DNA of 64,000 nucleotides from a bacterium (GCA_035308905.1 DATGFS010000030.1:139966-203965), one strand, 5' to 3'. Shown: positions 32,643 through 64,000, counted from the stretch's first letter. Notes: generated from the letters alone by a model not told the origin. Numbers and translations: made by a program.

Positions 32643-32719
32643 TGGTGCGCCCGGAGGGACTCGAACCCCCGGCCCGCTGCTTCGAAGGCAGCCGCTCTCT
32701 CCGACTGAGCTACGGGCGC
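32643..32719 (-). tRNA. tRNA-Arg (anticodon TCG)
   Basis: Manual fold: acceptor stem GCGCCCG/CGGGCGC, D-arm GCTC-AGTCGGAGA-GAGC, anticodon loop CTTCGAA, T-arm GGGGG-TTCGAGT-CCCTC, with an encoded CCA. Confidence 0.85.
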
Positions 32720-32775
32720 GCGACGACGGCGTTCCGCCGCCTGGTCCCCGCAAGGGGACGACGATCGATCCAATG

Positions 32776-32865
32776 TGGTGCGGGCGGAGGGATTTGAACC
32801 CCCACGAGCCTCGCGGCCCACCAGGTCCTAAGCCTGGTGCGTCTGCCAGGTTCCGCCACGCCCGC
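32776..32865 (-). tRNA. tRNA-Leu (anticodon TAG), long variable arm
   Basis: The gene is 90 nt: acceptor GCGGGCG/CGCCCGC, anticodon stem-loop CCAGG-CTTAGGA-CCTGG, a long variable arm and T-loop TTCAAAT, with an encoded CCA. Confidence 0.85.
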
Positions 32866-32930
32866 GGTCCGACGCGTTCCGATTTTACGGCCGCTTGTCG
32901 GTCGCCGTCAAACACGCTAGAATGACGCGG

Positions 32931-33006
32931 GGGCCGTTAGCACAACTGGCAGTGCAGGGGACTCTTAATCCCAAGGTTGTAGGTTCGAGTCCTACACGGC
33001 CCACCA
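32931..33006 (+). tRNA. tRNA-Lys (anticodon CTT)
   Basis: The gene is 76 nt: acceptor GGGCCGT/ACGGCCC, U8, A14, G18G19, anticodon loop CTCTTAA, T-arm GTAGG-TTCGAGT-CCTAC, discriminator A and CCA. Confidence 0.8.
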
Positions 33007-47846: not shown

Positions 47847-49541
<1,695 letters not shown>

Positions 49542-52759: not shown

Positions 52760-52835
52760 TGGGGTGGCTGACGGGAATCGAACCCGCAACCCCCAGAGCC
52801 ACAGTCTGGTGCTCTGCCTTTGAGCTACAGCCACC
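52760..52835 (-). tRNA. tRNA-His (anticodon GTG) with encoded G-1 and CCA
   Basis: Manual fold: G-1 followed by acceptor GTGGCTG/CAGCCAC, anticodon stem-loop CCAGA-CTGTGGC-TCTGG, T-arm GCGGG-TTCGATT-CCCGT and discriminator C. Confidence 0.88.
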
Positions 52836-52861
52836 ACGTGACGTGATTGTAGCATTCAGGC

Positions 52862-52955
52862 GACGGCCGCGCATACCGCGGCCTAGTCCCCGTTAGGGGG
52901 CGACGGCCGCGCATACCGCGGCCTAGTCCCCGTTAGGGAGCGACGGCCGCGTCGA
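52862..52955. repeat. Tandem direct repeat: two full copies (plus the start of a third) of the unit gcgacggccgcgcataccgcggcctagtccccgttaggg, each containing the perfect hairpin GGCCGCG-cat/ac-CGCGGCC
   Basis: Seen directly: 52862-52902 and 52903-52943 differ at one base. The repeats lie between tRNA-His and the convergent DUF167 gene. Confidence 0.8.
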
Positions 52956-53180: not shown

Positions 53181-56159
53181 TCAGGCGTCCCGGGCGGCGG
53201 GCGTCTCGCCGGGCAGCGCGAGCGCCAGCGCTTCCGCGAGGTGCAGCGCGCGCCGGCCCGTGCCGTGGGCGATCTGCTGGCGGCACGACGTGCCCGATGC
53301 GACCAGCAGCGTCTCCGCCGGCGCCGCCCGCACCGTCTTGAACAGCACGCGCTCGCCCATAGCGATCGAGATGTCGTAATGCTCGCGCTCGACGCCGAAG
53401 GAGCCGGCCATGCCGCAGCAGCCGGAGTCGATCTCGTCGACCGACGCGCCGGGCACCGCCCGCAGGGCGGCGAGGGCCGGGCCCGTCCGGATCATCGCCT
53501 TCTGATGACAGTGGCCGTGCATCAGCACACGCCGGTCGGCCGGCGTGTACGGCGGGCGGATTCCCGCCGCATCGAGCACGCCGAGATACTCTTCGAACGC
53601 GTAGGTCGCCCGGGCGACCGCGTCCGCGGCACCGCCGCGCAGCAGATCCGGGTACTCATCTTTGAAGGTCACGATGCAGGACGGCTCCAGTCCCACGATC
53701 GGCATGCCGGCCTCGGCGAACGGCCGCAGCCGCTCGATCGTGCGGGCGGCGAGCCGCTGGGCCTGCCGCAGCATCCCGTTGCTGATCATCGGGCGCCCGC
53801 AGCACGACAGCGGGACGAGCTCGACGCGGCATCCGGCCGATTCGAGCACCCGTACGGCGGCCCGCCCGATCGACGGGTAATAGTACTCCGTGAACGTATC
53901 CACGAACAACGCGACCCGTCCCTGCCCCGGCACCCCGAGGAATCCCGCTCCTGCCGGCGCGCCGGCGGACGAGGGGGCGCGCTCCCGCCACCATTGCGTG
54001 AAGCGGCGGCGCGCGAAGGGCGGCAGCCGCCGCCGGGCGTCGATGCCCGCGATCCGCTCGAGCGCCCACCGTACCGGCGCGCTGCCGAGCAGCCGGTTCG
54101 CGAGGGGCGCCGCCGCGCAGCCGAGCGGCCCGAGCGCGGCGACGTGGCCGAAGAGCCGCGCCCGCAGCGGCAGCCCGTGCCGTGCGTAGTATCCGGCGAG
54201 AAACTCGTGCTTGAGCTTGGCCATGTCGACGTTACTGGGACACTCGGCCTTGCACGCCTTGCAGCCGATACAGAGATCCATCACGTCGTACAGTTCGCGG
54301 CTCGTCAGCGACCCCGCCGGCAGCACACCGGAGATCGCCGCCCGCAGCGCGTTGGCGCGGCCGCGCGTGCTGTGCGCCTCTTCGAGCGTGAGCATGTAAG
54401 ACGGGCACATCGTCCCGCCGCGCGGCTTCCGGCACGCGCCGATACCGCTGCAGAGCTCGATCGAGGCCCGCACCCCTCCGTCGCGGCTGAAGTCCTGGAC
54501 CGTCGCGGGAGCGGGCCCGGGCTCCGGCCGGTACCGCAGCGATTCGGTCATCGGCGGCGCATCGACGATCTTCCCGGGGTTCATACGGCCTTCCGGATCG
54601 AACGCTGCCTTGATCCCGCGGAACGCGGCGTAGAGCCGGGAGCCGAACATCTTCTCCACAAACTCGCCGCGCGACAGGCCGTCGCCATGCTCGCCGCTCA
54701 GCGCCCCGCCGAACTCGGCGACGAGGGCGGCAATCTCCTCGGCGATCTGACGCATCTCCGCGACGTCCCGGGGCTCATGGAGGTCGAGGATCGGACGGGT
54801 GTGCAGAAGGCCGACGCTCGCGTGGCCGTAGAACGACGCGTCGGTCCCGTGGCGCCGCACGATCTCCCGGAAGCGGCGCGTGTACTCGGCGATGCGGGCG
54901 GGATCGACCGCGCTGTCCTCGACGAACGCGACCGGCTTGCGGGCGCTTTTCATGCCGAGCAGCAGTCCGACGCCGGCCTCGCGAACCGCCCAAAGGTTGG
55001 CCTGGGCCGCGGGGTCGAGGATCCGCCGCATCGTCCCCCGGTAGCCCTCCCGGCGCATTCGGGCCTCCAGGCCGTCGAGCGCCGGCGCCAGCGCGGCCTG
55101 GCTCTCGCCGGCGTACTCGACCGCGATCAACGCGCCGGGGTTCCCGTCGACGAACGTCAGGCGCTGACTCAGCTCGCCTGTTTGGCGGGCGAGCTCCACG
55201 ATGTACCGGTCCGTGAGCTCCACCGCCGCCGGCTTCGTCGACAGAATTTCCGGGGTGTACTCGAGCGCGGGCACGAGGTCGTCGAACTGAAACACCGCGA
55301 GCACGGTCGCGGGCGGCCGGCGCGCCAGCCGCACCGTCGCCTCGGTCACGATCGCGAGCGTCCCTTCGGAGCCGGCGACCAGCTTGCCGAGATTCACCGC
55401 GCCGCCCGCGGGAAACTCGTCGAGATTGTAGCCGCCGACCCGCCGTTGGATGCGCGGAAATCGCCGCGCGACCTCGTCCCGGGCGCCCGCCACGATCCGG
55501 GCGACCTCGCGGTAGAGCCGTCCTTCCGCGCCGCCGCCCTGCGCCCGCCGCGCCGCCTCGTCCGGCGGGATGTCCTCGAAGACGACCGGCGTGCCGTCCG
55601 CCAGCCACGCGCGCATCGCGAGCAGCGTGTCGACCGTCTTTCCGTAGACGATCGACCTGGAACCGGAGGAATTGTTGCCGATCATCCCGCCGATCGTCGC
55701 GCGGCTGCTCGTCGACGTCTCCGGGCCGTAGATGAGCCCGCTCGGCGCGAGCGCCCGCAGCAGCTCGTGTCGCACGACCCCGGGCTGCACGCGGGCCCAC
55801 CCGGCCTCGGCGTTGATCTCGACGACGCTGTTCATGTACTTCGAGAAATCGAGCACGATCGCGCGGCCGACGGTCTGGCCGGCCAGACTGGTGCCGCCGC
55901 CCCTCGGCAAGAGCGGCGCCTGGGCGGCGCGCGCGGCCTCGATCACGGCCTGCACGTCGTCCGCGTCGCGCGGCAGGACGACGCCGAGCGGCTCGATCTC
56001 GTAGATGCTGGCGTCGGTGCTGTAGAGGGCGCGCGAGACCGCGTCGAACCGTACCTCGCCCCGTACGCGCCGGCGAAGGTCGTGGACGAGATCGCGCAGG
56101 TCGGCGGGCGGCACCGCTCCGACGGGCGCAGCCGTGGTGGCCCGGCGGGTGAAGCTCAA
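53181..56159 (-). CDS. FAD-binding (GlcD-like) and Fe-S-binding (GlpC/GlcF-like) fusion oxidoreductase (D-lactate/glycolate dehydrogenase-like)
   Basis: The 992-aa product has an N-terminal FAD_binding_4 domain (LPRGGGTSLAGQ), an FAD-oxidase C-terminal domain, two ferredoxin-type CxxCxxC clusters (CIGCKACKAECP) and CCG domains (CCGRP, CCGMAG). Confidence 0.88.
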   Translation of the reverse strand: MSFTRRATTAAPVGAVPPADLRDLVHDLRRRVRGEVRFDAVSRALYSTDASIYEIEPLGVVLPRDADDVQAVIEAARAAQAPLLPRGGGTSLAGQTVGRAIVLDFSKYMNSVVEINAEAGWARVQPGVVRHELLRALAPSGLIYGPETSTSSRATIGGMIGNNSSGSRSIVYGKTVDTLLAMRAWLADGTPVVFEDIPPDEAARRAQGGGAEGRLYREVARIVAGARDEVARRFPRIQRRVGGYNLDEFPAGGAVNLGKLVAGSEGTLAIVTEATVRLARRPPATVLAVFQFDDLVPALEYTPEILSTKPAAVELTDRYIVELARQTGELSQRLTFVDGNPGALIAVEYAGESQAALAPALDGLEARMRREGYRGTMRRILDPAAQANLWAVREAGVGLLLGMKSARKPVAFVEDSAVDPARIAEYTRRFREIVRRHGTDASFYGHASVGLLHTRPILDLHEPRDVAEMRQIAEEIAALVAEFGGALSGEHGDGLSRGEFVEKMFGSRLYAAFRGIKAAFDPEGRMNPGKIVDAPPMTESLRYRPEPGPAPATVQDFSRDGGVRASIELCSGIGACRKPRGGTMCPSYMLTLEEAHSTRGRANALRAAISGVLPAGSLTSRELYDVMDLCIGCKACKAECPSNVDMAKLKHEFLAGYYARHGLPLRARLFGHVAALGPLGCAAAPLANRLLGSAPVRWALERIAGIDARRRLPPFARRRFTQWWRERAPSSAGAPAGAGFLGVPGQGRVALFVDTFTEYYYPSIGRAAVRVLESAGCRVELVPLSCCGRPMISNGMLRQAQRLAARTIERLRPFAEAGMPIVGLEPSCIVTFKDEYPDLLRGGAADAVARATYAFEEYLGVLDAAGIRPPYTPADRRVLMHGHCHQKAMIRTGPALAALRAVPGASVDEIDSGCCGMAGSFGVEREHYDISIAMGERVLFKTVRAAPAETLLVASGTSCRQQIAHGTGRRALHLAEALALALPGETPAARDA

Positions 56160-57101
56160 CTAGGTCGCGCGGGCGGCACCGAGTGGCTCGCGGGCCGGGC
56201 TCCAGGTGAGTCGGTTGGGAAGCGGCGAGTGATCCGCGGTCAGCAGCACGAGAATGCCGTCGAGGTCGGCCGCCCCGACGCCGAGACACGGCCCGTAGTC
56301 GGCGGTCGGCCCGGGTGTGACGCCGTGCGCCCGCAGCCGCGCCGCGGCGCGAGCGAGGTCGTCCGCCCCGGGGAGCCGGACCGTGAAGTACCAGAGGCCC
56401 GGGCCGGTGGGCGCCGCGGGTGGAATGCCCTGCCCCGCCCACACGTTGGTCCCGAGGTGATGATGGTAGCCACCCGCCGACAGGAACAGCGCGCCCGTAT
56501 ATCGCCGGAGCGTCACGTCGAAGCCGAGCGCCTCGTGATAGAAGGCCTCCGCGCGGCGGAGATCGGAGACCCGCAGGTGGACGTGTCCGAGGCGGGTGCC
56601 TTCGGGGGCCGGCGCGGACCGATCGCCGCCCGCGGCGAGCAGGTCCCGCAGATCGAGCTCACGGGTGGTCATGTCCACCTGGTCGCTGTTCCAGGGCCAC
56701 TGCTCCTGGGGCCGATCGGCATAGAGCTCCAGGCCGTTGCCCTCCGGATCACGCAGGTACAGGGCCTCGCTGACGAGATGGTCGGATGCCCCGTCGAGCG
56801 CGACGTCGTGCTCGAGAAGACGCCGCAGCAGGCGTCCGAGCGCGGCGCGGCCGGGCAGCAGAAACGCCGCGTGGTACAGTCCAGAGCGCCGGCGCGGCCC
56901 GGGCGCCGGGTCCGCGGTGGCGGTGAGCCCGAGTGCGAACGGGTAGCGGCCGTCGGCCGACAGCATCACCGTCTCATCGCCGCGCCACGCCTCACGGAAC
57001 CCCAGCACATCGCGGTAAAATCCCAACGCACGGTCGAGATCGGCAACGCGCAGGTGCACGTGTCCGACGGTCGTTCGGGGATCGAGCAGCGTCTCGGTCA
57101 T
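56160..57101 (-). CDS. VOC-family (glyoxalase/bleomycin-resistance/extradiol dioxygenase fold) two-module protein
   Basis: The product starts MTETLLDPRTTVGHVHLRVADLDRALGFYRDVLGF and has a second module reading LGHVHLRVSDLRRAEAFYHEALGF. The start is the ATG at 57101; the upstream part of the ORF is Arg-rich junk. Confidence 0.75.
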   Translation of the reverse strand: MTETLLDPRTTVGHVHLRVADLDRALGFYRDVLGFREAWRGDETVMLSADGRYPFALGLTATADPAPGPRRRSGLYHAAFLLPGRAALGRLLRRLLEHDVALDGASDHLVSEALYLRDPEGNGLELYADRPQEQWPWNSDQVDMTTRELDLRDLLAAGGDRSAPAPEGTRLGHVHLRVSDLRRAEAFYHEALGFDVTLRRYTGALFLSAGGYHHHLGTNVWAGQGIPPAAPTGPGLWYFTVRLPGADDLARAAARLRAHGVTPGPTADYGPCLGVGAADLDGILVLLTADHSPLPNRLTWSPAREPLGAARAT

Positions 57102-57163
57102 TACGGTGGCGTTCGCGGTGGCGCGGGCCCCATCCTCCGGCCTCGGGCCGCGGGCGCCCGGCC

Positions 57164-57307
57164 ATGATTCGCCTCGTCTGCCCGCACTGCGGCGTGCAGT
57201 TTCTGCGGCTCGAGGCGCCGGACGGGGACGAGCCCGTCGAATGTCCGCACTGTCACCGCCGGTTCGTGCCCGACGAGGAAGAGTACGTCGATCCCGAAGA
57301 CGTCTGA
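57164..57307 (+). CDS. Small zinc-ribbon protein (47 aa, CPxCG...CPxC)
   Basis: The product is MIRLVCPHCGVQFLRLEAPDGDEPVECPHCHRRFVPDEEEYVDPEDV, with two CxxC pairs in zinc-ribbon spacing and an acidic tail. Confidence 0.45.
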   Translation: MIRLVCPHCGVQFLRLEAPDGDEPVECPHCHRRFVPDEEEYVDPEDV

Positions 57308-57349
57308 CGGACCGCGTGTGCGGTCCACCGCGAAAGGAGTGATTGATCC

Positions 57350-57754
57350 ATGGCGACGGATCCCGCGAAGCGCGGACAGACAAACCAGCCGGCCGGCGCA
57401 ACCGGTCTGGCCGACCGGCGGTGCGTCCCCTGCCAGGGAGGCACGCCGCCGCTCACCCGCGCCGAGTTCGCGCCCCTGCTCGCGCAACTCGACGGGTGGC
57501 AGGTGGAGGACGAGCGGATGCTCGTGAAGGTCTTCCGGTCCAAGAACTTCGTCCAGGCCGTCGAGTTTGTGAACGCGATCACGCCGGTGGCGGAGGCGGA
57601 AAATCACCATCCCGACCTGCGCGTGAGCTGGGGACAGGTGCGGGTGGAGTTGTGGACGCACAAGATCAACGGCCTCAGCGAAGCGGACTTCGTGATGGCG
57701 GCGAAGATCGACCGGGTCTACGCGCGGCCGTCCGCCGCGGCGGGCGGAAGTTAG
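57350..57754 (+). CDS. Pterin-4a-carbinolamine dehydratase (PCD/DCoH, PhhB-like)
   Basis: The 134-aa product reads EAENHHPDLRVSWGQVRVELWTHKINGLSEADFVMAAKID, the PCD active-site motif. Confidence 0.85.
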   Translation: MATDPAKRGQTNQPAGATGLADRRCVPCQGGTPPLTRAEFAPLLAQLDGWQVEDERMLVKVFRSKNFVQAVEFVNAITPVAEAENHHPDLRVSWGQVRVELWTHKINGLSEADFVMAAKIDRVYARPSAAAGGS

Positions 57755-57762
57755 CTCCGGCG

Positions 57763-59232
57763 CTAATCGAGCGGCGGGCGCCGGCCGGCCCAGGGCTGAA
57801 CGGCCTCGAACCCGGCGGCGGCGCACAGCACCGTCGCGTCGGCGTGCCAGCGGCCGATGATCTGCAGTCCCACCGGCAGCCCCGCCCGCGTCCATCCGCA
57901 CGGCACCGACACGGCCGGGTGCCCCGTCAGGTTGAACGGAAAGGTAAACGTGAGCCGCTCCAAGAGGGTCGGCGCCGGGCGGCCGTCGATGACGGCGCCG
58001 CTGTCCGGTTCGACCGGCCAGGCCGCGACCGGCATCGTCGGCGTCAGCAGCAGATCGTAGTCCTCAAACAACCGTCCCACCGCCTGGTAGAACGGCGCCC
58101 GGGCGAGCAGGGCGCGGCCGTAGTCGAGCGCGCTCATGCGGCCGGCGTCGACGATCATGCGCATGAGCGACGGCTCGATCCAGTCGGGATGCTCGCGCGC
58201 CCGATCCTGATGGCGCGCCGCGACGCCGACGTGCCAGATGTACCGGTGCGGCTCGCGCATGTCCGGCCATCCGAGATCCGGCGCGTCGAGCGCGCAGCCC
58301 AAATCGGCGAACCGGCGCGCCGACGTCTCCGTGATCGTCCGCACCTCCGGGTCCACGGGAAGACAGCCGAGGTCCGCGCTCCACGCGACCCGCAGTCCGC
58401 GAAGATCACGATCGCAGGCAGCGACGTAGTCCTCGGCCGGCGCGTCGATCGATAAGGGATCGCGCGGGTCCGGGCCGGCGAGCGCGGCAAGCATGAGCGC
58501 CGCGTCGCGCACGGTTCGCGTGATCGGTCCGTTGTGGGAGCGCGACGCCCAGTAATCGGGACTCGGGTGGTACGGCACCCGGCCGAACGAGGGCTTGAGA
58601 CCGACGACGCCGCACAGCGACGCCGGGCACCGGATTGAGCCGGCGCCGTCCGAACCGTGGGCCAGCGGCCCCAGCCCGGCCGCGACCCCGGCCGCGGCGC
58701 CTCCCGACGATCCGCCGGACGTCCGATCCCGCCCCCACGGATTGCGGCACGGCGGACCGATCAAGTTGTCGCTCATGTCCTTGTGCCCGAAGTGCGGCGT
58801 GTTGGTCTTGCCGACAAGCACGCCGCCGGTCGCGCGCAGCCGCCCGGCCGCCGCGCCGTCTGTCGATGGGACGTGGCGTTCGAACCACCGGGAGCCGTAG
58901 GTGGTCCGCACGCCGGCCGTGTCCTCGAGGTCCTTCACCGAGTACGGAATGCCGTCGAGCGGTCCCTTGCGCTCGCCGCGCCGCGCGCGTGCCTCCGCGT
59001 CGCGCGCCTGGGCGCGGGCAAGGTCGGCGGTCACCGTGATGTAGGCGTTGAGCGCGGGATTGACGCGCCCGATCCGCGCGAGCACCGCCTCCGTGATCTC
59101 GACCGGCGAGACGTCGCCGGCCCGGATGAGACGGTCCAGTTCGAGCACGGGGGTGAAGCACAGATCGTTCGCCGCCATAGATGCCTCCATAGCCCACGCT
59201 GGCTGCCACCGTGGTTCTACCGTCGCAATCAC
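57763..59232 (-). CDS. Amidase (amidase-signature family, GatA-like)
   Basis: The 489-aa product has the AS signature GGSSGGAAAGVAAGLGPLAHGSDGAGSIRCPASLCGVVGLKPSFGRV and the catalytic Ser-cisSer-Lys context (KDL...). Confidence 0.9.
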   Translation of the reverse strand: MIATVEPRWQPAWAMEASMAANDLCFTPVLELDRLIRAGDVSPVEITEAVLARIGRVNPALNAYITVTADLARAQARDAEARARRGERKGPLDGIPYSVKDLEDTAGVRTTYGSRWFERHVPSTDGAAAGRLRATGGVLVGKTNTPHFGHKDMSDNLIGPPCRNPWGRDRTSGGSSGGAAAGVAAGLGPLAHGSDGAGSIRCPASLCGVVGLKPSFGRVPYHPSPDYWASRSHNGPITRTVRDAALMLAALAGPDPRDPLSIDAPAEDYVAACDRDLRGLRVAWSADLGCLPVDPEVRTITETSARRFADLGCALDAPDLGWPDMREPHRYIWHVGVAARHQDRAREHPDWIEPSLMRMIVDAGRMSALDYGRALLARAPFYQAVGRLFEDYDLLLTPTMPVAAWPVEPDSGAVIDGRPAPTLLERLTFTFPFNLTGHPAVSVPCGWTRAGLPVGLQIIGRWHADATVLCAAAGFEAVQPWAGRRPPLD

Positions 59233-59250
59233 ATGTCCCGCCGTAACACA

Positions 59251-59433
59251 CTATCGCTCCGGCGCCAACGTGATTTCCAGCGTCAAGGTCAGCAGGCTCG
59301 CAAGGGCATGGCGAAACATATTCTCGTCGTCGGCGACGAGTACTCGAATCTTCCGGAGAACCTGGCTCACCGTTCTTCCACCCGCAAACCGCGCGAAGGG
59401 GCAGTCGGACCTGACCCACCACGCCAGCATCAT
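59251..59433 (-). pseudogene. Remnant of a response-regulator receiver domain (N-terminal ~20 aa only), lying at the left edge of a lower-GC island
   Basis: The ORF encodes ...RKIRVLVADDENMFRHALASLL, which matches the N-terminus of NarL/LuxR-type receiver domains (MIRVLIADDHPLFREGL). It then diverges and stops (LTLTLEITLAPER*). Confidence 0.45.
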
Positions 59434-59581
59434 GATCTCAACCAGTATCAGCCCGACCGTGATCCGGAAGAGCCAGATGGGTCTTCCGGTCTTTGGGTCA
59501 AACGTGTCAGTCTACGAAAGCACGATTTCTGTCACCACCCCCAGAGTTGTCAGATGTTCATCGCTTCGGTTGAAGTTTCCA

Positions 59582-61285
59582 TCATGGGCTGAAAGCGGGG
59601 CTCCAGCTGTTCCCTGGTGGTGTGTCTAGGCGAATCAAATGCGATCCGTTTGTATTCATCATGTAGATGTGCGACCAAGCCGTGAACGCTATTTTGGTGC
59701 CGTCTGGGTTGAATATGGGCGCGTCAACTTCGTGGAGGTTAGTGAGACGTGTGTCCTTTGTGCCATTTGTATTCATCACGTGGATTTGCCCATCGTTCCA
59801 AGAGAGGAACGCGATCTGGCGACTATCCGGGCTGAACACGGGTTCAAAACCTCCGCCCGTGGTCTTGGTCAGCAAGATCGCATTCGTTCCGTCGAGGCTC
59901 ATGACGTAAATCTCGGGCAGTCCTCGATCGCGCTGCGAGGTGAATGCTATCTTCCGACCGTCCGGACTGAGTGAAACACTGTTAAATTGAAGGGAGTTGG
60001 TTTTTCCGCGCAGGTCGGTCAAGCGGACTACGTTGGCGCCATCAGCGTTCATCATATAGATCTGGGTGCTTCCGCCTCGATCGGAGTCGAACACCATCTT
60101 CCGACCGTCCGGACTGAACTCAGGAGAAGAGCTGCTCCCCGGGGGGGATGTCAAGCGGACTACGCGGGAGCCATCGGCGTTCATCATATAGATTTGCGTG
60201 CTCCCGTCTCGATCGGAGTCAAACGCAATCCTCGCGCCATCCGGGCTGAACGTCGGGTTGTCGTTTGTTCTGGGAGGAGTCGTCAGGCGGGTCACATGCG
60301 ACCCGTCCGCACCCATGATGTAGATTTGATCGGTTCGGCCGATCCGGTTCTGGCCGGAGGTGAAGGCGATCCTGCGACCGTCGGGGCTGAACGCAATTTG
60401 TTTAGGAACATCGGGAACCCTGGGAAAGCGGGCCAGGCTGGACCCGTCCGCATTGATGACATAGAACTGGGAGCTCCCGTCACAATCAGACAAGAAAACG
60501 ATGCGCCCCGGGACCGGTCGGGTGTGTCCGACCAGCAAGGGTCCCTGCACCCCGCAGAGGGGGCTCTCCATCAAGGCGACCAGCAGCGCCAGAGATGCCG
60601 TCGCCCTCCAAGCAATGGCTGGCCCCCAACGTTCAGTCCACAAGATCCAGCCGGGGCGCCGCAACAGCAGCACGAAGGCGATCCCCGTGACCGCCCCCAT
60701 TACTGCTCCGCCCGCGGCATAGCCCGCAAGCTCGCCTATGTTCGCACCGTAGCGAACGCCGGTACCAAAGCCAATGACGATTCCAACACCGTAACCCGCA
60801 GCGAAGCCGATGACATTCGCCAACACCCACAGACCTGCCCGGGAAAGCTGCCAGCGGAGGACCAGTCCTTCGAGAGTCCCGACGACCAACCCTATGAGGA
60901 AGCCATAACTTGGCCAGTATGCCCAATCTCCCATATGGCCTGCATGGACGATATGGGCTAGCCAGTTAGCTAAGGGCGTGCCTAGAAGACGATTCGCGTA
61001 ATCGCCTGCTGCAAAGCCCAAGGCATTCGCAGCCAGCCACGGCGAACACCGGAGGGCGTGCCGTCGCCGGATGACAAGCCATTGCATTACTCCCACCGCG
61101 GCGCCTGCAACAGGGAGTCCGCTCCCAGTGGCTCCGAGAGCCACGGCAAAGACGACGCCGTTGTATCCGAGCGCGGGGAATAGGAGGGATACTACTAACA
61201 TCCATACAGCACCGGCGACTAGGCCCCCAGCAGTCGCCAGCAACCACTGAATGCAGAAGACAAGTTCGTCCAGAAAAACTCTCAT
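59582..61285 (-). CDS. Membrane-anchored TolB-like (PD40 / WD40-like beta-propeller) protein with an N-terminal polytopic module built from internal Gly/Ala-rich TM repeats
   Basis: The C-terminal ~300 aa carry repeated PD40 units (FSPDGRRIAF...QIYIM/MNADGS...RLT). The N-terminal ~270 aa consist of hydrophobic G/A-rich segments, each ending in a basic motif (GVMQWLVIRRR / GLVLRWQLSRAG / IAFVLLLRRPGW). The start is the ATG at 61285. The region is lower in GC than the rest of the window. Confidence 0.75.
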   Translation of the reverse strand: MRVFLDELVFCIQWLLATAGGLVAGAVWMLVVSLLFPALGYNGVVFAVALGATGSGLPVAGAAVGVMQWLVIRRRHALRCSPWLAANALGFAAGDYANRLLGTPLANWLAHIVHAGHMGDWAYWPSYGFLIGLVVGTLEGLVLRWQLSRAGLWVLANVIGFAAGYGVGIVIGFGTGVRYGANIGELAGYAAGGAVMGAVTGIAFVLLLRRPGWILWTERWGPAIAWRATASLALLVALMESPLCGVQGPLLVGHTRPVPGRIVFLSDCDGSSQFYVINADGSSLARFPRVPDVPKQIAFSPDGRRIAFTSGQNRIGRTDQIYIMGADGSHVTRLTTPPRTNDNPTFSPDGARIAFDSDRDGSTQIYMMNADGSRVVRLTSPPGSSSSPEFSPDGRKMVFDSDRGGSTQIYMMNADGANVVRLTDLRGKTNSLQFNSVSLSPDGRKIAFTSQRDRGLPEIYVMSLDGTNAILLTKTTGGGFEPVFSPDSRQIAFLSWNDGQIHVMNTNGTKDTRLTNLHEVDAPIFNPDGTKIAFTAWSHIYMMNTNGSHLIRLDTPPGNSWSPAFSP

Positions 61286-61400
61286 GATGTCCGCTCCCGC
61301 AATTCTCCTACCGTCGCCGCTGATCGCTGGGGGGCCATGACATAAATGAGTGGGCATCAGCTAAAGAGCCCAATCGCTTCAAAATGCCCCATTATGGGTG

Positions 61401-62870
61401 CTAAGGATCGGGCCTCTCCGTGACCTCTGCCCCTGCCAACACGGCGACGAGCGCGGCAATACCAGATGGGTGCGTCACATCGCCGGGCTGGAAGTCCGCA
61501 TATTGCGCTCCGGGGTCGAAGTGAAAACCGTGGCGCATCTCCGCCAGAAACACTGCTGGATCTTGGCCGGCTTTTCCAAACCATCTCAGTTCCTCATATT
61601 CGAACCGGCCCAAAACGACCGTCACCGCATCGGTAAGAATCGTGCCCGTGTCGGCGTCTCTCGTACTTATGGCCCAGTGGACACTGTGGGTCTCCAGATC
61701 AAGAGTCGGCTTGTCCCGCCAACCGATGAGTTCATACGGACCCAGTCCTTTGGCTGCCCGCCTTTTGTTGTTGGCTTTGGTCGCCGCATTTACTCTCTTG
61801 AGGATGCCGCCGGCATCGAGGGTGTTCCCAATCCAATCGTCCAGGCGGACATACCCGCCTCTGACGTGCCGGAACGTGACAAACTCCCCTGTTTCTCGAT
61901 TGAGAACGACGACATCCGTGGGCAACCTGAATCGTGTGCCCTGGGCCGTCTGCCGAAAAGGTCCGATGCCCTGGGTGGTCATCCAAAAGCGGGCGGTAGC
62001 CGCCGCCCCGGTAAGCACAGCCCGGCTTTCGTCGACAATGAGCGTCGCCCTTGATTCAGTGAGAGGGAACGTGCCGCCCCGCTGCCACGGCAGCTGCTGC
62101 AGAACATTCTGTCGCTCGGCATCCGTCTTCGGGACACCCGGAGAGGAAGAGACAGAAGGTTCTTCCTGGTAGTCCGGCCGAGCCGCGGGCGTATTGGCGT
62201 CAACGATGTCTGCCCAAAACTCAATCGCTTTGGCAGGCCTCTTGAGAGAAGGCGTCTGGGTATGCGTTTCCAAAGAGATCCCGAAACGATACGGGAATTC
62301 GTTTTCCAGGTAGCCTTCCAGATCTGAACCGCAATGGATTATGTCCGTCTGCCAGACGGAAAATATGGGGTTGCCCTCTTCGTGCGGGCGATCGGGAATG
62401 TACCGGTGGCCGTAGATGGGAATCAATCTTGGCGCTTCGGTCATCAATTGCTTGATTTTTCCCAAGCGGTCCTCTAAGATTGGCGGTTTTTCCCCCCATG
62501 CCTCAAGCCAAATGCCGTTTTTGACATCAAAGCAGATGCCTTCATACGGATGATTTAGTCTTTCGCGAATCTCCGCCTCACTCGCCCGTCGCCAGTTCAG
62601 CCATCCCGACAACCGACCTCGCGGTTTGCTCATCCGCGTGTCGACAGGCAAGCCCAGAGACAAAAATAGTCGCAAGTCAGGAGGAAAGCGGAAGTCAAAT
62701 TTGCGCTCGAGGTCGTCGAGTTCTTGGTCTGTCAAGCCACGTTCGAATTTCACAGGCAAGTATCGTTGCGTCTGGCCGAAAATCTTATATCTCCCTGCTG
62801 TCCACTCAAGGTGGCTTCGAACGTAGCGGTAGTCCATACCGACAGCGGCATCGCCGCGCGGGTAGGGCAT
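61401..62870 (-). CDS. SUKH (SMI1/KNR4)-domain protein with an uncharacterised ~250-aa C-terminal domain
   Basis: The N-terminal half reads LTDQELDDLERKFDFRFPPDLRLFLSLGLP...IPIYGHRYIPDRPHEEGNPIFSVWQTDIIHCGSDLEGYL, which matches the SUKH-1/SMI1-KNR4 fold; these act as immunity proteins of polymorphic toxin systems. The C-terminal half has no recognised family. The start is the ATG at 62870. Confidence 0.6.
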   Translation of the reverse strand: MPYPRGDAAVGMDYRYVRSHLEWTAGRYKIFGQTQRYLPVKFERGLTDQELDDLERKFDFRFPPDLRLFLSLGLPVDTRMSKPRGRLSGWLNWRRASEAEIRERLNHPYEGICFDVKNGIWLEAWGEKPPILEDRLGKIKQLMTEAPRLIPIYGHRYIPDRPHEEGNPIFSVWQTDIIHCGSDLEGYLENEFPYRFGISLETHTQTPSLKRPAKAIEFWADIVDANTPAARPDYQEEPSVSSSPGVPKTDAERQNVLQQLPWQRGGTFPLTESRATLIVDESRAVLTGAAATARFWMTTQGIGPFRQTAQGTRFRLPTDVVVLNRETGEFVTFRHVRGGYVRLDDWIGNTLDAGGILKRVNAATKANNKRRAAKGLGPYELIGWRDKPTLDLETHSVHWAISTRDADTGTILTDAVTVVLGRFEYEELRWFGKAGQDPAVFLAEMRHGFHFDPGAQYADFQPGDVTHPSGIAALVAVLAGAEVTERPDP

Positions 62871-63280
62871 CGTTTTCTTCCCTACGATTGCATAGTTTTT
62901 GCTCTTGGCATCCGTTTCTTCCCGTAACGCTCTCCGGTACGTCCTGGCGAACGAGAGAGTCACTAAAAAATCAGCAAGACGATAGACGGCCACCACTCCA
63001 TCGACGTGAACCCCTCTCCCCGGGGAGCGGCCAATCAAGAAGACCTTACTGACCGTACGATCTCGCCAGCGCTAACCTGTCAGCTCAATTCAGTTGAAAC
63101 GCCCTTGCTTCCTCGCTATCCGTTGAGTTGCATTCCGACATCGTTCACCGCATTCGACTCCTCAGCCTATTATCGACATTTTCCACATGCGAGCACACTC
63201 CATATCAGTATTCAGTCGCCGGGTTGCAGCGAACGCTCCCAACCGGCATTGTGCTGGAAACGAAGAGAGAACACCCTGCA

Positions 63281-64000
63281 TCATGGAGTTGGGGTTGCGA
63301 TATAGCCATGCTCCTTGCCGCCCGCATCCCTAAAGGATCCCACGATTTGTCCAGCGGCGTTGATACCGTTGGTAGAGGTCCCCGTCGAGCCCGGGGGATC
63401 GAACGTGGTGAACGTGCCCTCGGAGGTCCGCAGGTAGCCATGGGTCTTGTTGTCCGCGTCCTTGAACTCGCCCACGATCTGTCCGGCGTCATTGATCCCG
63501 GCGGCATCGGTCCAGGCCGCGCCTGGAACATCGATCGTAGTGAAGGTGCCCCCAGCAGTTCGCAAAAAGCCTGCGTCCGCAACCTCGCCCACGATCTCCG
63601 CCGAGTCGTTGATCCCGTAGGCGAAGGTCGCCATCGCGCCGGGAACATCGAACGTGGTAAAGGTGCCGCCGGAGGTGCGCAGGTAGCCATGGGTCTTGCC
63701 GCCCGCGTCGTTGAAGACGCCCACGATCTGCCCGGCGGTATTGATGCCCGCGGCACCGGTCCCCCTTGCCTTCGGAACATCCAACGTGGTAAAGGTGCCC
63801 GCAGAGGTTCGCAAAAAGCCATGGAACTTACCGCCCGCGTCCCTGAAGGATCCCACGATCTGTCCGGCGGCGTTGATCCCAGTGGCAAGGGTCGCCGTCG
63901 AGCCCGGAGGATCGATCGTCGTGAAGGTGCTCTCGGCTATGCGTAGATAGCCATGAGTCTTGCCACTCACGTCCCAGAACACGCCCACGATTTGCCCGGC
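63281..64000 (-). CDS. HAF-family extracellular repeat protein (5'-partial; the N-terminus lies beyond the window end)
   Basis: Six or more ~40-aa repeats of the form GIN.AGQIVG.F.DAGGK.HGFLRT.GGTFTT.DVPG match the TIGR03803 'HAF' extracellular repeat. The window ends mid-protein. Confidence 0.7.
   Translation of the reverse strand, partial: AGQIVGVFWDVSGKTHGYLRIAESTFTTIDPPGSTATLATGINAAGQIVGSFRDAGGKFHGFLRTSAGTFTTLDVPKARGTGAAGINTAGQIVGVFNDAGGKTHGYLRTSGGTFTTFDVPGAMATFAYGINDSAEIVGEVADAGFLRTAGGTFTTIDVPGAAWTDAAGINDAGQIVGEFKDADNKTHGYLRTSEGTFTTFDPPGSTGTSTNGINAAGQIVGSFRDAGGKEHGYIATPTP

Follow-up and report, generated by a model that had tools for sequence, protein, structure and literature searches.

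A low-GC islet of regulator and envelope genes between tRNA-Arg(TCT) and a core amidase gene in an uncultured soil bacterium: a probable mosaic in decay

What kind of locus begins just behind an amidase gene at about 59.24 kb of a 64,000-nucleotide (nt) stretch of bacterial DNA (GCA_035308905.1, DATGFS010000030.1:139966-203965; the whole stretch is referred to below as the window) is the question addressed here. An initial annotation, made from the sequence alone, had described the tract from this point to the window end as a low-GC island with a receiver-domain remnant, a TolB-like propeller protein, a two-domain SUKH/SMI1 protein and a HAF-repeat protein, possibly a surface or conflict module with its toxin beyond position 64,000. 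Our analysis leads, with a probability of roughly 0.7, to the reading that the tract belongs to a mosaic, eroding, low-GC accessory islet of regulator and envelope genes, which lies between tRNA-Arg(TCT) and the core amidase gene of an uncultured soil bacterium of about 72% GC. The islet was probably acquired horizontally.

In windows of 500 nt, the GC content was 0.70-0.74 over 57,000-59,249, the amidase gene included, and 0.52-0.64 over 59,250-64,000, with 0.55 in the first low window (59,250-59,749). On the 2-kb scale the islet tract had the lowest GC content anywhere in the window, and the tetranucleotide distance, calculated in 4-kb windows, peaked at z = 10 over 59-63 kb. The GC content at third codon positions (GC3) was 0.85-0.92 in 13 called flanking genes. 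In the islet it was 0.64 for the gene of an SMI1-like+DUF2167 fusion protein, 0.67 for that of a transmembrane (TM) protein with a PD40 propeller (TM-PD40), 0.74 for the HAF gene, 0.77 for a LuxR-family regulator gene and 0.79 for a DUF4352-like gene, the two lowest values lying at z = -5.6 and -4.9 relative to background open reading frames (ORFs; 32 frame-consistent ORFs, 0.870 +/- 0.042). The drop reported behind the amidase gene at about 59.24 kb was thus borne out by GC, GC3 and tetranucleotides, and neither GC nor codon usage is uniform along the window. The graded GC3 values suggest that the pieces of the islet differ in age or source.

The low-GC tract begins at about 59,240, as had been stated, but does not end at 64,000. 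Through the exact 489-amino-acid (aa) product of 61,401-62,870 we found a 52.7-kb metagenome contig in ENA, here called L001, which shares 99.97% identity with the window along 12.6 kb, with all four differences outside the islet, and which supplies 8.9 kb past position 64,000. Inside the islet the L001 coordinate equals 72,871 minus the window coordinate, and positions past the window end are given as virtual window coordinates. Beyond the window, the GC content of L001 was 0.58-0.67 up to about L001 4,750 and about 0.69-0.72 from there on. The islet therefore extends from window position 59,241 to virtual position ~68,124, about 8.9 kb, with tRNA-Arg on one side and the amidase gene on the other, and the window holds its inner 4.8 kb. 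The order is tRNA-Arg, LuxR-STAND, DUF4352-like, PD40/HAF fragments, HAF, SMI1-like+DUF2167, TM-PD40, a chimeric ORF and amidase (Table 1); beyond tRNA-Arg, L001 continues with an epimerase gene and core genes. The genes named in the initial annotation are all present, on the minus strand.

The arrangement of the locus is solid, because it is identical in two assemblies made with k = 141, a k-mer length greater than the 53-bp repeat listed in Table 1. A k = 31 Logan assembly (SRR5579862) breaks exactly at this repeat. One of the Logan contigs, L031 (5272 nt), corresponds to L001 8358-13629 and runs from repeat to repeat, its first 30 nt being the same as its last 30 nt, while L034 starts 30 nt before the end of the repeat (L001 13600) and continues into the amidase gene. 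Such a 30-nt overlap is expected of a repeat-bounded segment, yet a circular or tandem form would give the same.

Table 1. Coordinates of the features of the islet (window positions unless L001 or virtual positions are indicated)
Feature	Position	Strand	Evidence or remark
53-bp perfect direct repeat, copy 2	59,242-59,294 (= L001 13577-13629)		Islet inner edge, beside amidase
Chimeric 60-aa ORF	59,251-59,433	-	Contains RVLVADDENMFRHALASLL
TM-PD40 protein, 567 aa	59,582-61,285 (longest ORF to 61,357)	-	Pfam PD40 3.5e-42
SMI1-like+DUF2167 fusion, 489 aa from first in-frame ATG	61,401-62,870 (ORF to 63,038)	-	
DUF2167 domain (PF09935)	about 61,434-62,078	-	93.2 bits versus 25, 1.9e-26
SMI1/KNR4-like domain, divergent	about 62,193-62,759	-	SMI1_KNR4 17.9 bits, gathering score 25.4
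Ancestral start and membrane-anchor remnant of the fusion	62,963-63,001	-	DNA alignment
HAF-repeat secreted protein	63,281-64,000; complete gene starts at virtual 64,144	-	Cut by window end
Frameshifted PD40 fragment fused to HAF piece	L001 8440-8673		
53-bp repeat, copy 1	virtual 64,484-64,536 (L001 8335-8387)		Past window end
LuxR-family STAND regulator, 767 aa	beyond window, beside tRNA-Arg		Strand opposite to other islet genes
tRNA-Arg(TCT)	L001 4671-4746 (virtual ~68,125)		41 nt from LuxR stop codon, 3' end towards islet

The gene order at this site differs between related genomes. The two closest species, represented by L004 and L005 (87% and 85% amidase identity), have no tRNA and no islet gene on the amidase side. 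L004 keeps the succession of amidase, pterin dehydratase, glyoxalase and FAD-oxidase genes, and upstream of its amidase gene it carries GspE-like and GAF/HD-GYP genes of normal GC content; in L005, the ORFs upstream of the amidase gene are methyltransferase- and luciferase-like, as read by eye from their translations. Since the composition is non-uniform and the synteny is not conserved in relatives, the claim of an island stands.

Close copies of the DUF4352-like gene were found in four metagenome contigs, L002, L024, L029 and L030. The LuxR+DUF4352 block showed about 95% nt identity in L002, where the LuxR gene is whole, and in L024, which has its first 266 codons. L029 (92%) has the DUF4352-like gene with its upstream region only, and L030 (75%) the DUF4352-like gene only. 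L002 reads MFS (major facilitator superfamily) transporter, LuxR, DUF4352, SMI1-DUF2167 and CoA-transferase, without HAF, TM-PD40 or tRNA, so that the left flank is a transporter gene in L002 versus tRNA-Arg and epimerase in L001. The DUF4352-like gene is followed in L024 by Peptidase_S26 and DinB_2, and in L029 by genes for a small Cys-rich secreted protein and an adenylate cyclase. The homology of L002 and L024 to L001 ends at L001 8387, which is the right end of the repeat, and that of L029 goes 34 nt further and is followed by 29 nt in common with L002. The HAF segment was therefore inserted into an older intergenic region between DUF4352 and SMI1; together, the HAF gene and the PD40/HAF fragment make up an insertion of about 1.3 kb (about L001 8422-9728) relative to L002 and L029. 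Scans of metagenome contigs with the DNA pattern of the repeat and with the DUF4352 alignment returned nothing. In L024 (2088-2163) the DUF4352-like gene has TCG in place of its TAG stop codon and is thereby lengthened by 24 aa, into the beginning of the Peptidase_S26 gene.

Homologues of islet genes occur on contigs of comparatively low GC content: 0.546 for L003, 0.59-0.61 for L025-L027, 0.58 for L030 and 0.596 for L032, the range for distant DUF4352 homologues (58-74% identity) and for TM-PD40 and SMI1-like relatives being 0.55-0.64. This fits donor lineages of lower GC content.

The edge of the islet at the amidase gene carries its own trace of recombination. The two copies of the 53-bp direct repeat, identical at 53 of 53 positions by blastn and spaced 5,242 bp apart, hold the end of the DUF4352-like gene, namely its final 14 codons and stop codon, with another 9 nt. 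Homology of L005 in the amidase region begins at L001 13645, 16 nt outside copy 2, and the repeat therefore sits at the edge of core DNA. In the chimeric ORF, a receiver-like N-terminal piece, KIRVLVADDENMFRHALASLL (about 59,290-59,352), is in frame with the 14 codons of the DUF4352-like tail, LTLTLEITLAPER, and the stop codon. This joint is the insertion or rearrangement scar that had been suspected earlier. As to the receiver remnant named at the same place, the identity of this N-terminal piece cannot be demonstrated statistically: against Pfam the chimeric ORF gave no Response_reg match and nothing at E <= 10, and when the piece was compared with a plasmid collection by tblastn, 7 of the 12 best places were annotated starts of response-regulator genes at non-significant E values of 0.4-5. 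From this resemblance, a receiver origin of the piece is plausible. The chimeric ORF is a recombination scar and no functional regulator. Two simple histories would each account for the repeat. In one, a circular DNA integrated by homologous recombination within the 3'-terminal part of the DUF4352-like gene, and the receiver/DUF4352 joint would be the circle-closing junction; in the other, the DNA lying between a response-regulator gene and a second copy of DUF4352 was deleted.

The pair of genes next to the tRNA is the part of the islet that recurs. In two further contigs the LuxR proteins were 96-97% and the DUF4352-like proteins 92-93% identical at the aa level. The LuxR protein has GerE (63.9 bits, threshold 23.5), NB-ARC (28.2 bits, threshold 23.5) and TPR_12 (52 bits, threshold 30.1) matches in Pfam, together with AAA_16 and TPR_MalT, and thereby resembles the LuxR STAND regulators of the MalT/AfsR type, which have an NTPase (NB-ARC/AAA_16) at the N-terminus, TPRs in the middle and a GerE helix-turn-helix at the C-terminus. 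Unlike those examples it is paired with a divergently transcribed gene for a DUF4352-like secreted protein (320 aa, signal peptide, weak DUF4352 match with E = 0.003). The called DUF4352-like gene (289 aa, start MPQDP) omits the signal peptide, encoded at L001 7416-7508 (virtual 65,363-65,455); the orthologues and the ORF favor the 320-aa protein starting with MRRVSTVLTCLFIAALLSVSAAAG.

Between the DUF4352-like and HAF genes lie about 340 nt of gene wreckage, consisting of a blade and a half of a PD40 propeller, split over two frames and similar to the TM-PD40 protein with E about 1e-7, which runs straight into a HAF-like piece (...YVMDFGGKFTRIDVPGA) similar to the HAF protein with E about 1e-3. 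The HAF gene itself, which had been reported as a HAF-family repeat protein running off the window, is completed in L001 (8727-9590) and encodes 287 aa with the signal peptide MRRSWAWLGIMIVCCTLGVTLPAQA. Its assignment was confirmed by TIGR02913, with five stretches, E = 1.5e-28 and 98.5 bits, above the curated cut-off of 22.65. Members of this family often carry PEP-CTERM; in this protein the sorting signal is absent, and it ends with ...KEHGYIATPTP without a hydrophobic tail. No further domain, toxin domains included, was seen in the complete 287-aa protein, and no exosortase family was among the Pfam matches of the called genes of L001.

The protein previously called a TolB-like propeller on a repeated TM module has a C-terminal PD40 beta-propeller of seven repeat units (59,582-60,490) and a polytopic N-terminal part of about 265 aa (60,491-61,285), in which about six hydrophobic segments were seen, along with an internal repeat (z = 3.6) of the pattern G..VG..(Q/E).LV(I/L)R....W(L/V).AN..GFAAG. 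These two features of the description held, and the TolB assignment did not: the score against the TolB equivalog TIGR02800 was 233.6 bits, below its cut-off of 343.15, no TolB N-terminal domain was found in the protein and no tol-pal neighbours at the locus. The protein is not a TolB orthologue. The seven-unit propeller is shared with TolB and PD40 sensor propellers, the nearest homologues being "Tol biopolymer transport system component" domains on winged helix-turn-helix (wHTH) or Ser/Thr-kinase modules, but the polytopic N-terminus with its internal repeat is unlike TolB and matched no Pfam family. The entire architecture was otherwise found only in P0168 (45% identity, 92% coverage).

The remaining large gene had been given as a two-domain SUKH/SMI1 protein with a C-terminal domain of unknown function. 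The C-terminal half is DUF2167, residues 321-535 of the 545-aa ORF matching positions 4-210 of the 238 of the profile; for the N-terminal half, SMI1/SUKH was reached only below threshold (17.9 versus 25.4 bits, Foldseek E at least 0.23). The sole Pfam signals of the SMI1-like domain (N-domain) and its family are sub-threshold matches to the SMI1_KNR4 and SUKH models, SMI1_KNR4 giving 17-22 bits against the gathering score of 25.4; in a scan of relatives, 9 out of 10 were SMI1-like, 8 with sub-threshold SMI1_KNR4 matches. The domain has the N-terminal motif GLTDxEL...FxFPPDLRxFL, and one plant relative carries the name "Knr4/Smi1-like". An AlphaFold2 model of the N-domain, built from a 50-sequence alignment, had a mean confidence (pLDDT) of 84.8. 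Its best neighbours in the Protein Data Bank (PDB) by Foldseek were the Bacteroides SMI1/KNR4 protein 3d5p, YobK (2prv), FBXO3 and yeast Knr4, with E values of 0.23-5 and TM-scores of 0.27-0.49. Searches of the PDB with the N-domain sequence and with the 50-sequence profile gave nothing (E > 0.4), and the full-length model of the fusion (pLDDT 39.7) was unusable. Judged by sequence and model, the N-domain may be described as "SUKH-like, divergent", a putative member of that superfamily.

When 1.84 billion representatives were searched exhaustively with HMMER, 2,360 relatives were found at E <= 1e-3. Both halves were covered only by the query's own 50%-identity cluster; nearly all other listed matches were either proteins of about 190-200 aa (some longer; residues ~38-226, ~45% identity) or DUF2167 proteins, mostly of about 290 aa. 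A cluster look-up of the relatives gave almost no names, and a literature search on DUF2167 yielded nothing besides a genome announcement. The N-domain is like the SUKH/SMI1-KNR4 proteins (PF09346; 3d5p, YobK 2prv, Knr4) in its motif and sub-threshold Pfam signal and in that its top Foldseek matches all have the SUKH fold. It differs in being larger (about 190 aa) and in forming a family of its own that is widespread in the searched library and has a plant member. Unlike SUKH systems, it is fused to DUF2167, was ancestrally membrane-anchored and has no toxin partner at the locus. The likeness of the other half to DUF2167 (PF09935, "membrane-anchored protein") is a clear 93-bit match over most of the profile; canonical members have about 290 aa with a signal peptide and C-terminal TM anchors, whereas here the domain stands C-terminal to the SMI1-like domain and the anchors are missing.

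The fusion gene shows decay at its start. From the ATG at 63,001 (ATG GAG TGG...) the sequence reads MEWWPSIVLLIF and then a stop codon, with a 1-nt deletion relative to P0002, an 89%-identical orthologue that starts with MEWLPSVALLILLMILSFARTYRR and a predicted TM helix. In the window the long ORF goes on in another frame and has zero predicted TM segments, and the window and L001 agree across the islet, the deletion site included. The C-terminal tails of the two orthologues diverge by indels and frameshifts, and both are without the canonical DUF2167 TM anchors. A third protein, P0003 (L003 3050-4369), has a 78%-identical N-domain, TM-anchored, on another C-terminal domain, for which weak Peptidase_M78 and SprT-like matches were obtained, with HQxxH where HExxH is usual. 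The 55%-GC contig L003 also holds a weak DUF4352-like ORF (L003 64-489, E = 0.045) 2.5 kb upstream of the P0003 gene. A further idea, which we regard as quite unlikely, is that strains swap cassettes of envelope genes behind the LuxR-STAND/DUF4352 pair at a recurrent, near-site-specific point, located between the DUF4352 stop codon and about 9-45 nt past it. The 5.24-kb segment would then be such a cassette and could still excise or amplify; in relation to this, the SMI1-like domain with its membrane anchor may be what stays fixed in a new protein family whose C-terminal domain, DUF2167 or M78/SprT-like, is exchanged.

Three other origins for the locus were weighed against this evidence. Low-GC islets beside tRNA genes with decayed cargo are common, and the present locus resembles such small tRNA-adjacent islands, islets and hypervariable loci in its atypical GC content and codons, its tRNA neighbour, the strain-wise replacement of genes, the remnants and direct repeats at its junctions and its surface and regulatory cargo. 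A classical integrase-mediated island in the 3' end of tRNA-Arg(TCT), whose integrase and distal att site have since been lost, would account for the position of the tRNA, which adjoins the low-GC tract and points its 3' end at the islet, for the atypical composition and for the lack of the islet on the amidase side of relatives. It is a doubtful explanation, as the locus has no integrase or excisionase, tRNA-derived att site or mobility gene, as L001 holds no repeat of the tRNA 3' end and the window none of a convincing kind, and as its repeat comes from the 3' end of a cargo gene; moreover, L002 carries the LuxR-DUF4352-SMI1/DUF2167 block at a site without tRNA, between the MFS transporter and CoA-transferase genes, and the internal junctions favor homologous or illegitimate recombination. 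Nor was a tRNA found at the window-side border of the islet, or a terminal inverted or direct repeat at the ends of the shared block from LuxR to SMI1-DUF2167. The perfect 53-bp repeats raise the possibility that the 5.24-kb segment between them (HAF, SMI1-DUF2167, TM-PD40 and receiver remnant) is a mobile unit, a cassette captured by Campbell-type recombination that integrates, excises or amplifies through recombination in the 3'-terminal part of the DUF4352-like gene. Three observations could be read in this way: L002 and L024 lose their homology with L001 exactly where the repeat ends on the right; copy 2 is connected on its left to the receiver-like fragment by an illegitimate joint, as for a circle-closing junction; and the repeat-to-repeat Logan contig has a 30-nt terminal overlap. 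We consider this reading very unlikely, since SMI1-DUF2167 directly follows the DUF4352-like gene in L002 without any repeat structure, the sequence common to L029 reaches 34 nt past the repeat end and so the junction is not one fixed site, the locus lacks a recombinase, any segment bounded by repeats would show such a terminal overlap in a k = 31 graph, and a simple deletion from a response-regulator gene to a second DUF4352 copy explains the same facts.

The conflict module proposed initially, a polymorphic toxin-immunity or other inter-bacterial conflict system in which the SMI1/SUKH protein would be the immunity protein and the toxin would lie nearby or just past the window, appears highly improbable. 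The N-domain family does match only SMI1_KNR4 and SUKH models, sub-threshold, its structural neighbours include YobK, a known SUKH immunity protein, the N-domain stands on two unrelated C-terminal domains (P0001/P0002 versus P0003) in a way that recalls modular conflict proteins, and the locus is hypervariable. On the other hand, no toxin domain was found in the islet or adjoining genes, nor within 10 kb on either side, the 8.9 kb of L001 past 64,000 included, where there are only the complete HAF gene, the DUF4352-like and LuxR-STAND genes, tRNA-Arg and core genes; the upstream gene is the complete HAF gene, or the DUF4352-like gene in L002. No gene of the RHS, LXG, WXG or filamentous-haemagglutinin type is present. 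The SMI1-like family, with standalone members of about 190-200 aa and a plant member named "Knr4/Smi1-like", is therefore not specifically an immunity family, and the protein in question is a fusion of 489-545 aa and no small immunity protein, with its anchor frameshifted here. PADLOC gave nothing specific: against PADLOC-DB, SMI1-DUF2167, HAF and DUF4352 had no match, and TM-PD40 (E = 0.006) and LuxR had weak, generic ones (TPR, HTH, AAA). With no PADLOC system match, an anti-phage defence system was rejected. Phage or plasmid origin was rejected as well, PHROGs giving generic matches only and plasmid blastn none. Integrase and PEP-CTERM/exosortase genes, which the initial annotation had proposed to seek past 64,000, were absent from the called genes and Pfam matches of L001. 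The surface half of the early proposal is plausible, the islet genes being those of envelope or surface proteins.

For the mosaic islet itself we propose the following course of events. The islet would most likely have been acquired from lower-GC donors in several steps, after which recombination, both homologous and illegitimate, gave it a new shape. What stays constant in it is the divergently transcribed pair of the MalT/LuxR-type STAND regulator gene and the signal-peptide-bearing DUF4352-like gene. From about 9-45 nt past the DUF4352 stop codon a swap zone for genes of envelope and secreted proteins begins, with contents that differ between strains; here it holds the HAF protein, the SMI1-like+DUF2167 fusion, of a membrane-tethered type, and the polytopic TM-PD40 propeller protein. 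The STAND regulator may sense a signal and drive this variable set of cell-surface proteins, as domain content and targeting signals suggest. The present copy is partly decayed, as seen in the lost TM anchor, the gene fragments and the chimeric ORF.

Several points weigh against the proposed mosaic islet. No integrase, transposase or recombinase family was found among called genes or ORFs on the window side or in L001 that could point to a mechanism of acquisition. The 3' end of the tRNA (25 nt, up to 3 mismatches) has no second copy in L001, and in the window only 17-mers at chance level were found. A true empty site was missing among the relatives, since tRNA-Arg or the epimerase gene stood directly beside the amidase gene in none of those found, and the site upstream of amidase is a general synteny breakpoint among species. 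The low GC3 could in principle come from weak selection or another mutational regime in a native, fast-evolving locus. Every dataset is a metagenome assembly of uncultured organisms. Control of the downstream genes by LuxR and a function in surface variation are both what we infer from the sequence. A scan for promoters and terminators gave nothing above shuffled sequences.

Some observations were made elsewhere in the window. A GC dip at 47.8-49.5 kb was ruled out as a second island, since it reflects the amino-acid composition of GroEL (47,847-49,541, plus strand; overall GC 0.654, GC3 0.919). A cluster of tRNA-Arg(TCG), tRNA-Leu(TAG) and tRNA-Lys(CTT) at 32,643-33,006 lies within a moderate GC dip (0.63-0.66, 31-34 kb). 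At ~52,859-52,951, near tRNA-His (52,760-52,834), offset blastn self-matches revealed a short, imperfect tandem repeat (period about 40 nt). Position 54,769, inside the ORF 53,181-56,159 (minus strand), has a 1-nt indel relative to the otherwise identical L001. In the window this is a single 992-aa FAD-oxidase/Fe-S/CCG ORF, and the gene calls in L001 are of 486 and 524 aa; the indel is probably an assembly error in one contig or a strain variant.

Taken at this strength, the finding bears on how such a locus is to be classified. The "missing toxin" does not exist, and therefore the locus is not to be listed among polymorphic-toxin or defence systems. It is a well-documented case of how recombination first builds up and then erodes a small accessory locus, here in an uncultured soil lineage of high GC content. 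Two modest leads come from it. The conserved LuxR-STAND/DUF4352 pair is followed by variable genes, with a recurrent breakpoint behind the DUF4352-like gene. The SMI1-like+DUF2167 protein, taken as a "Rosetta-stone" fusion, hints that these two domains of unknown function may act together at the membrane.

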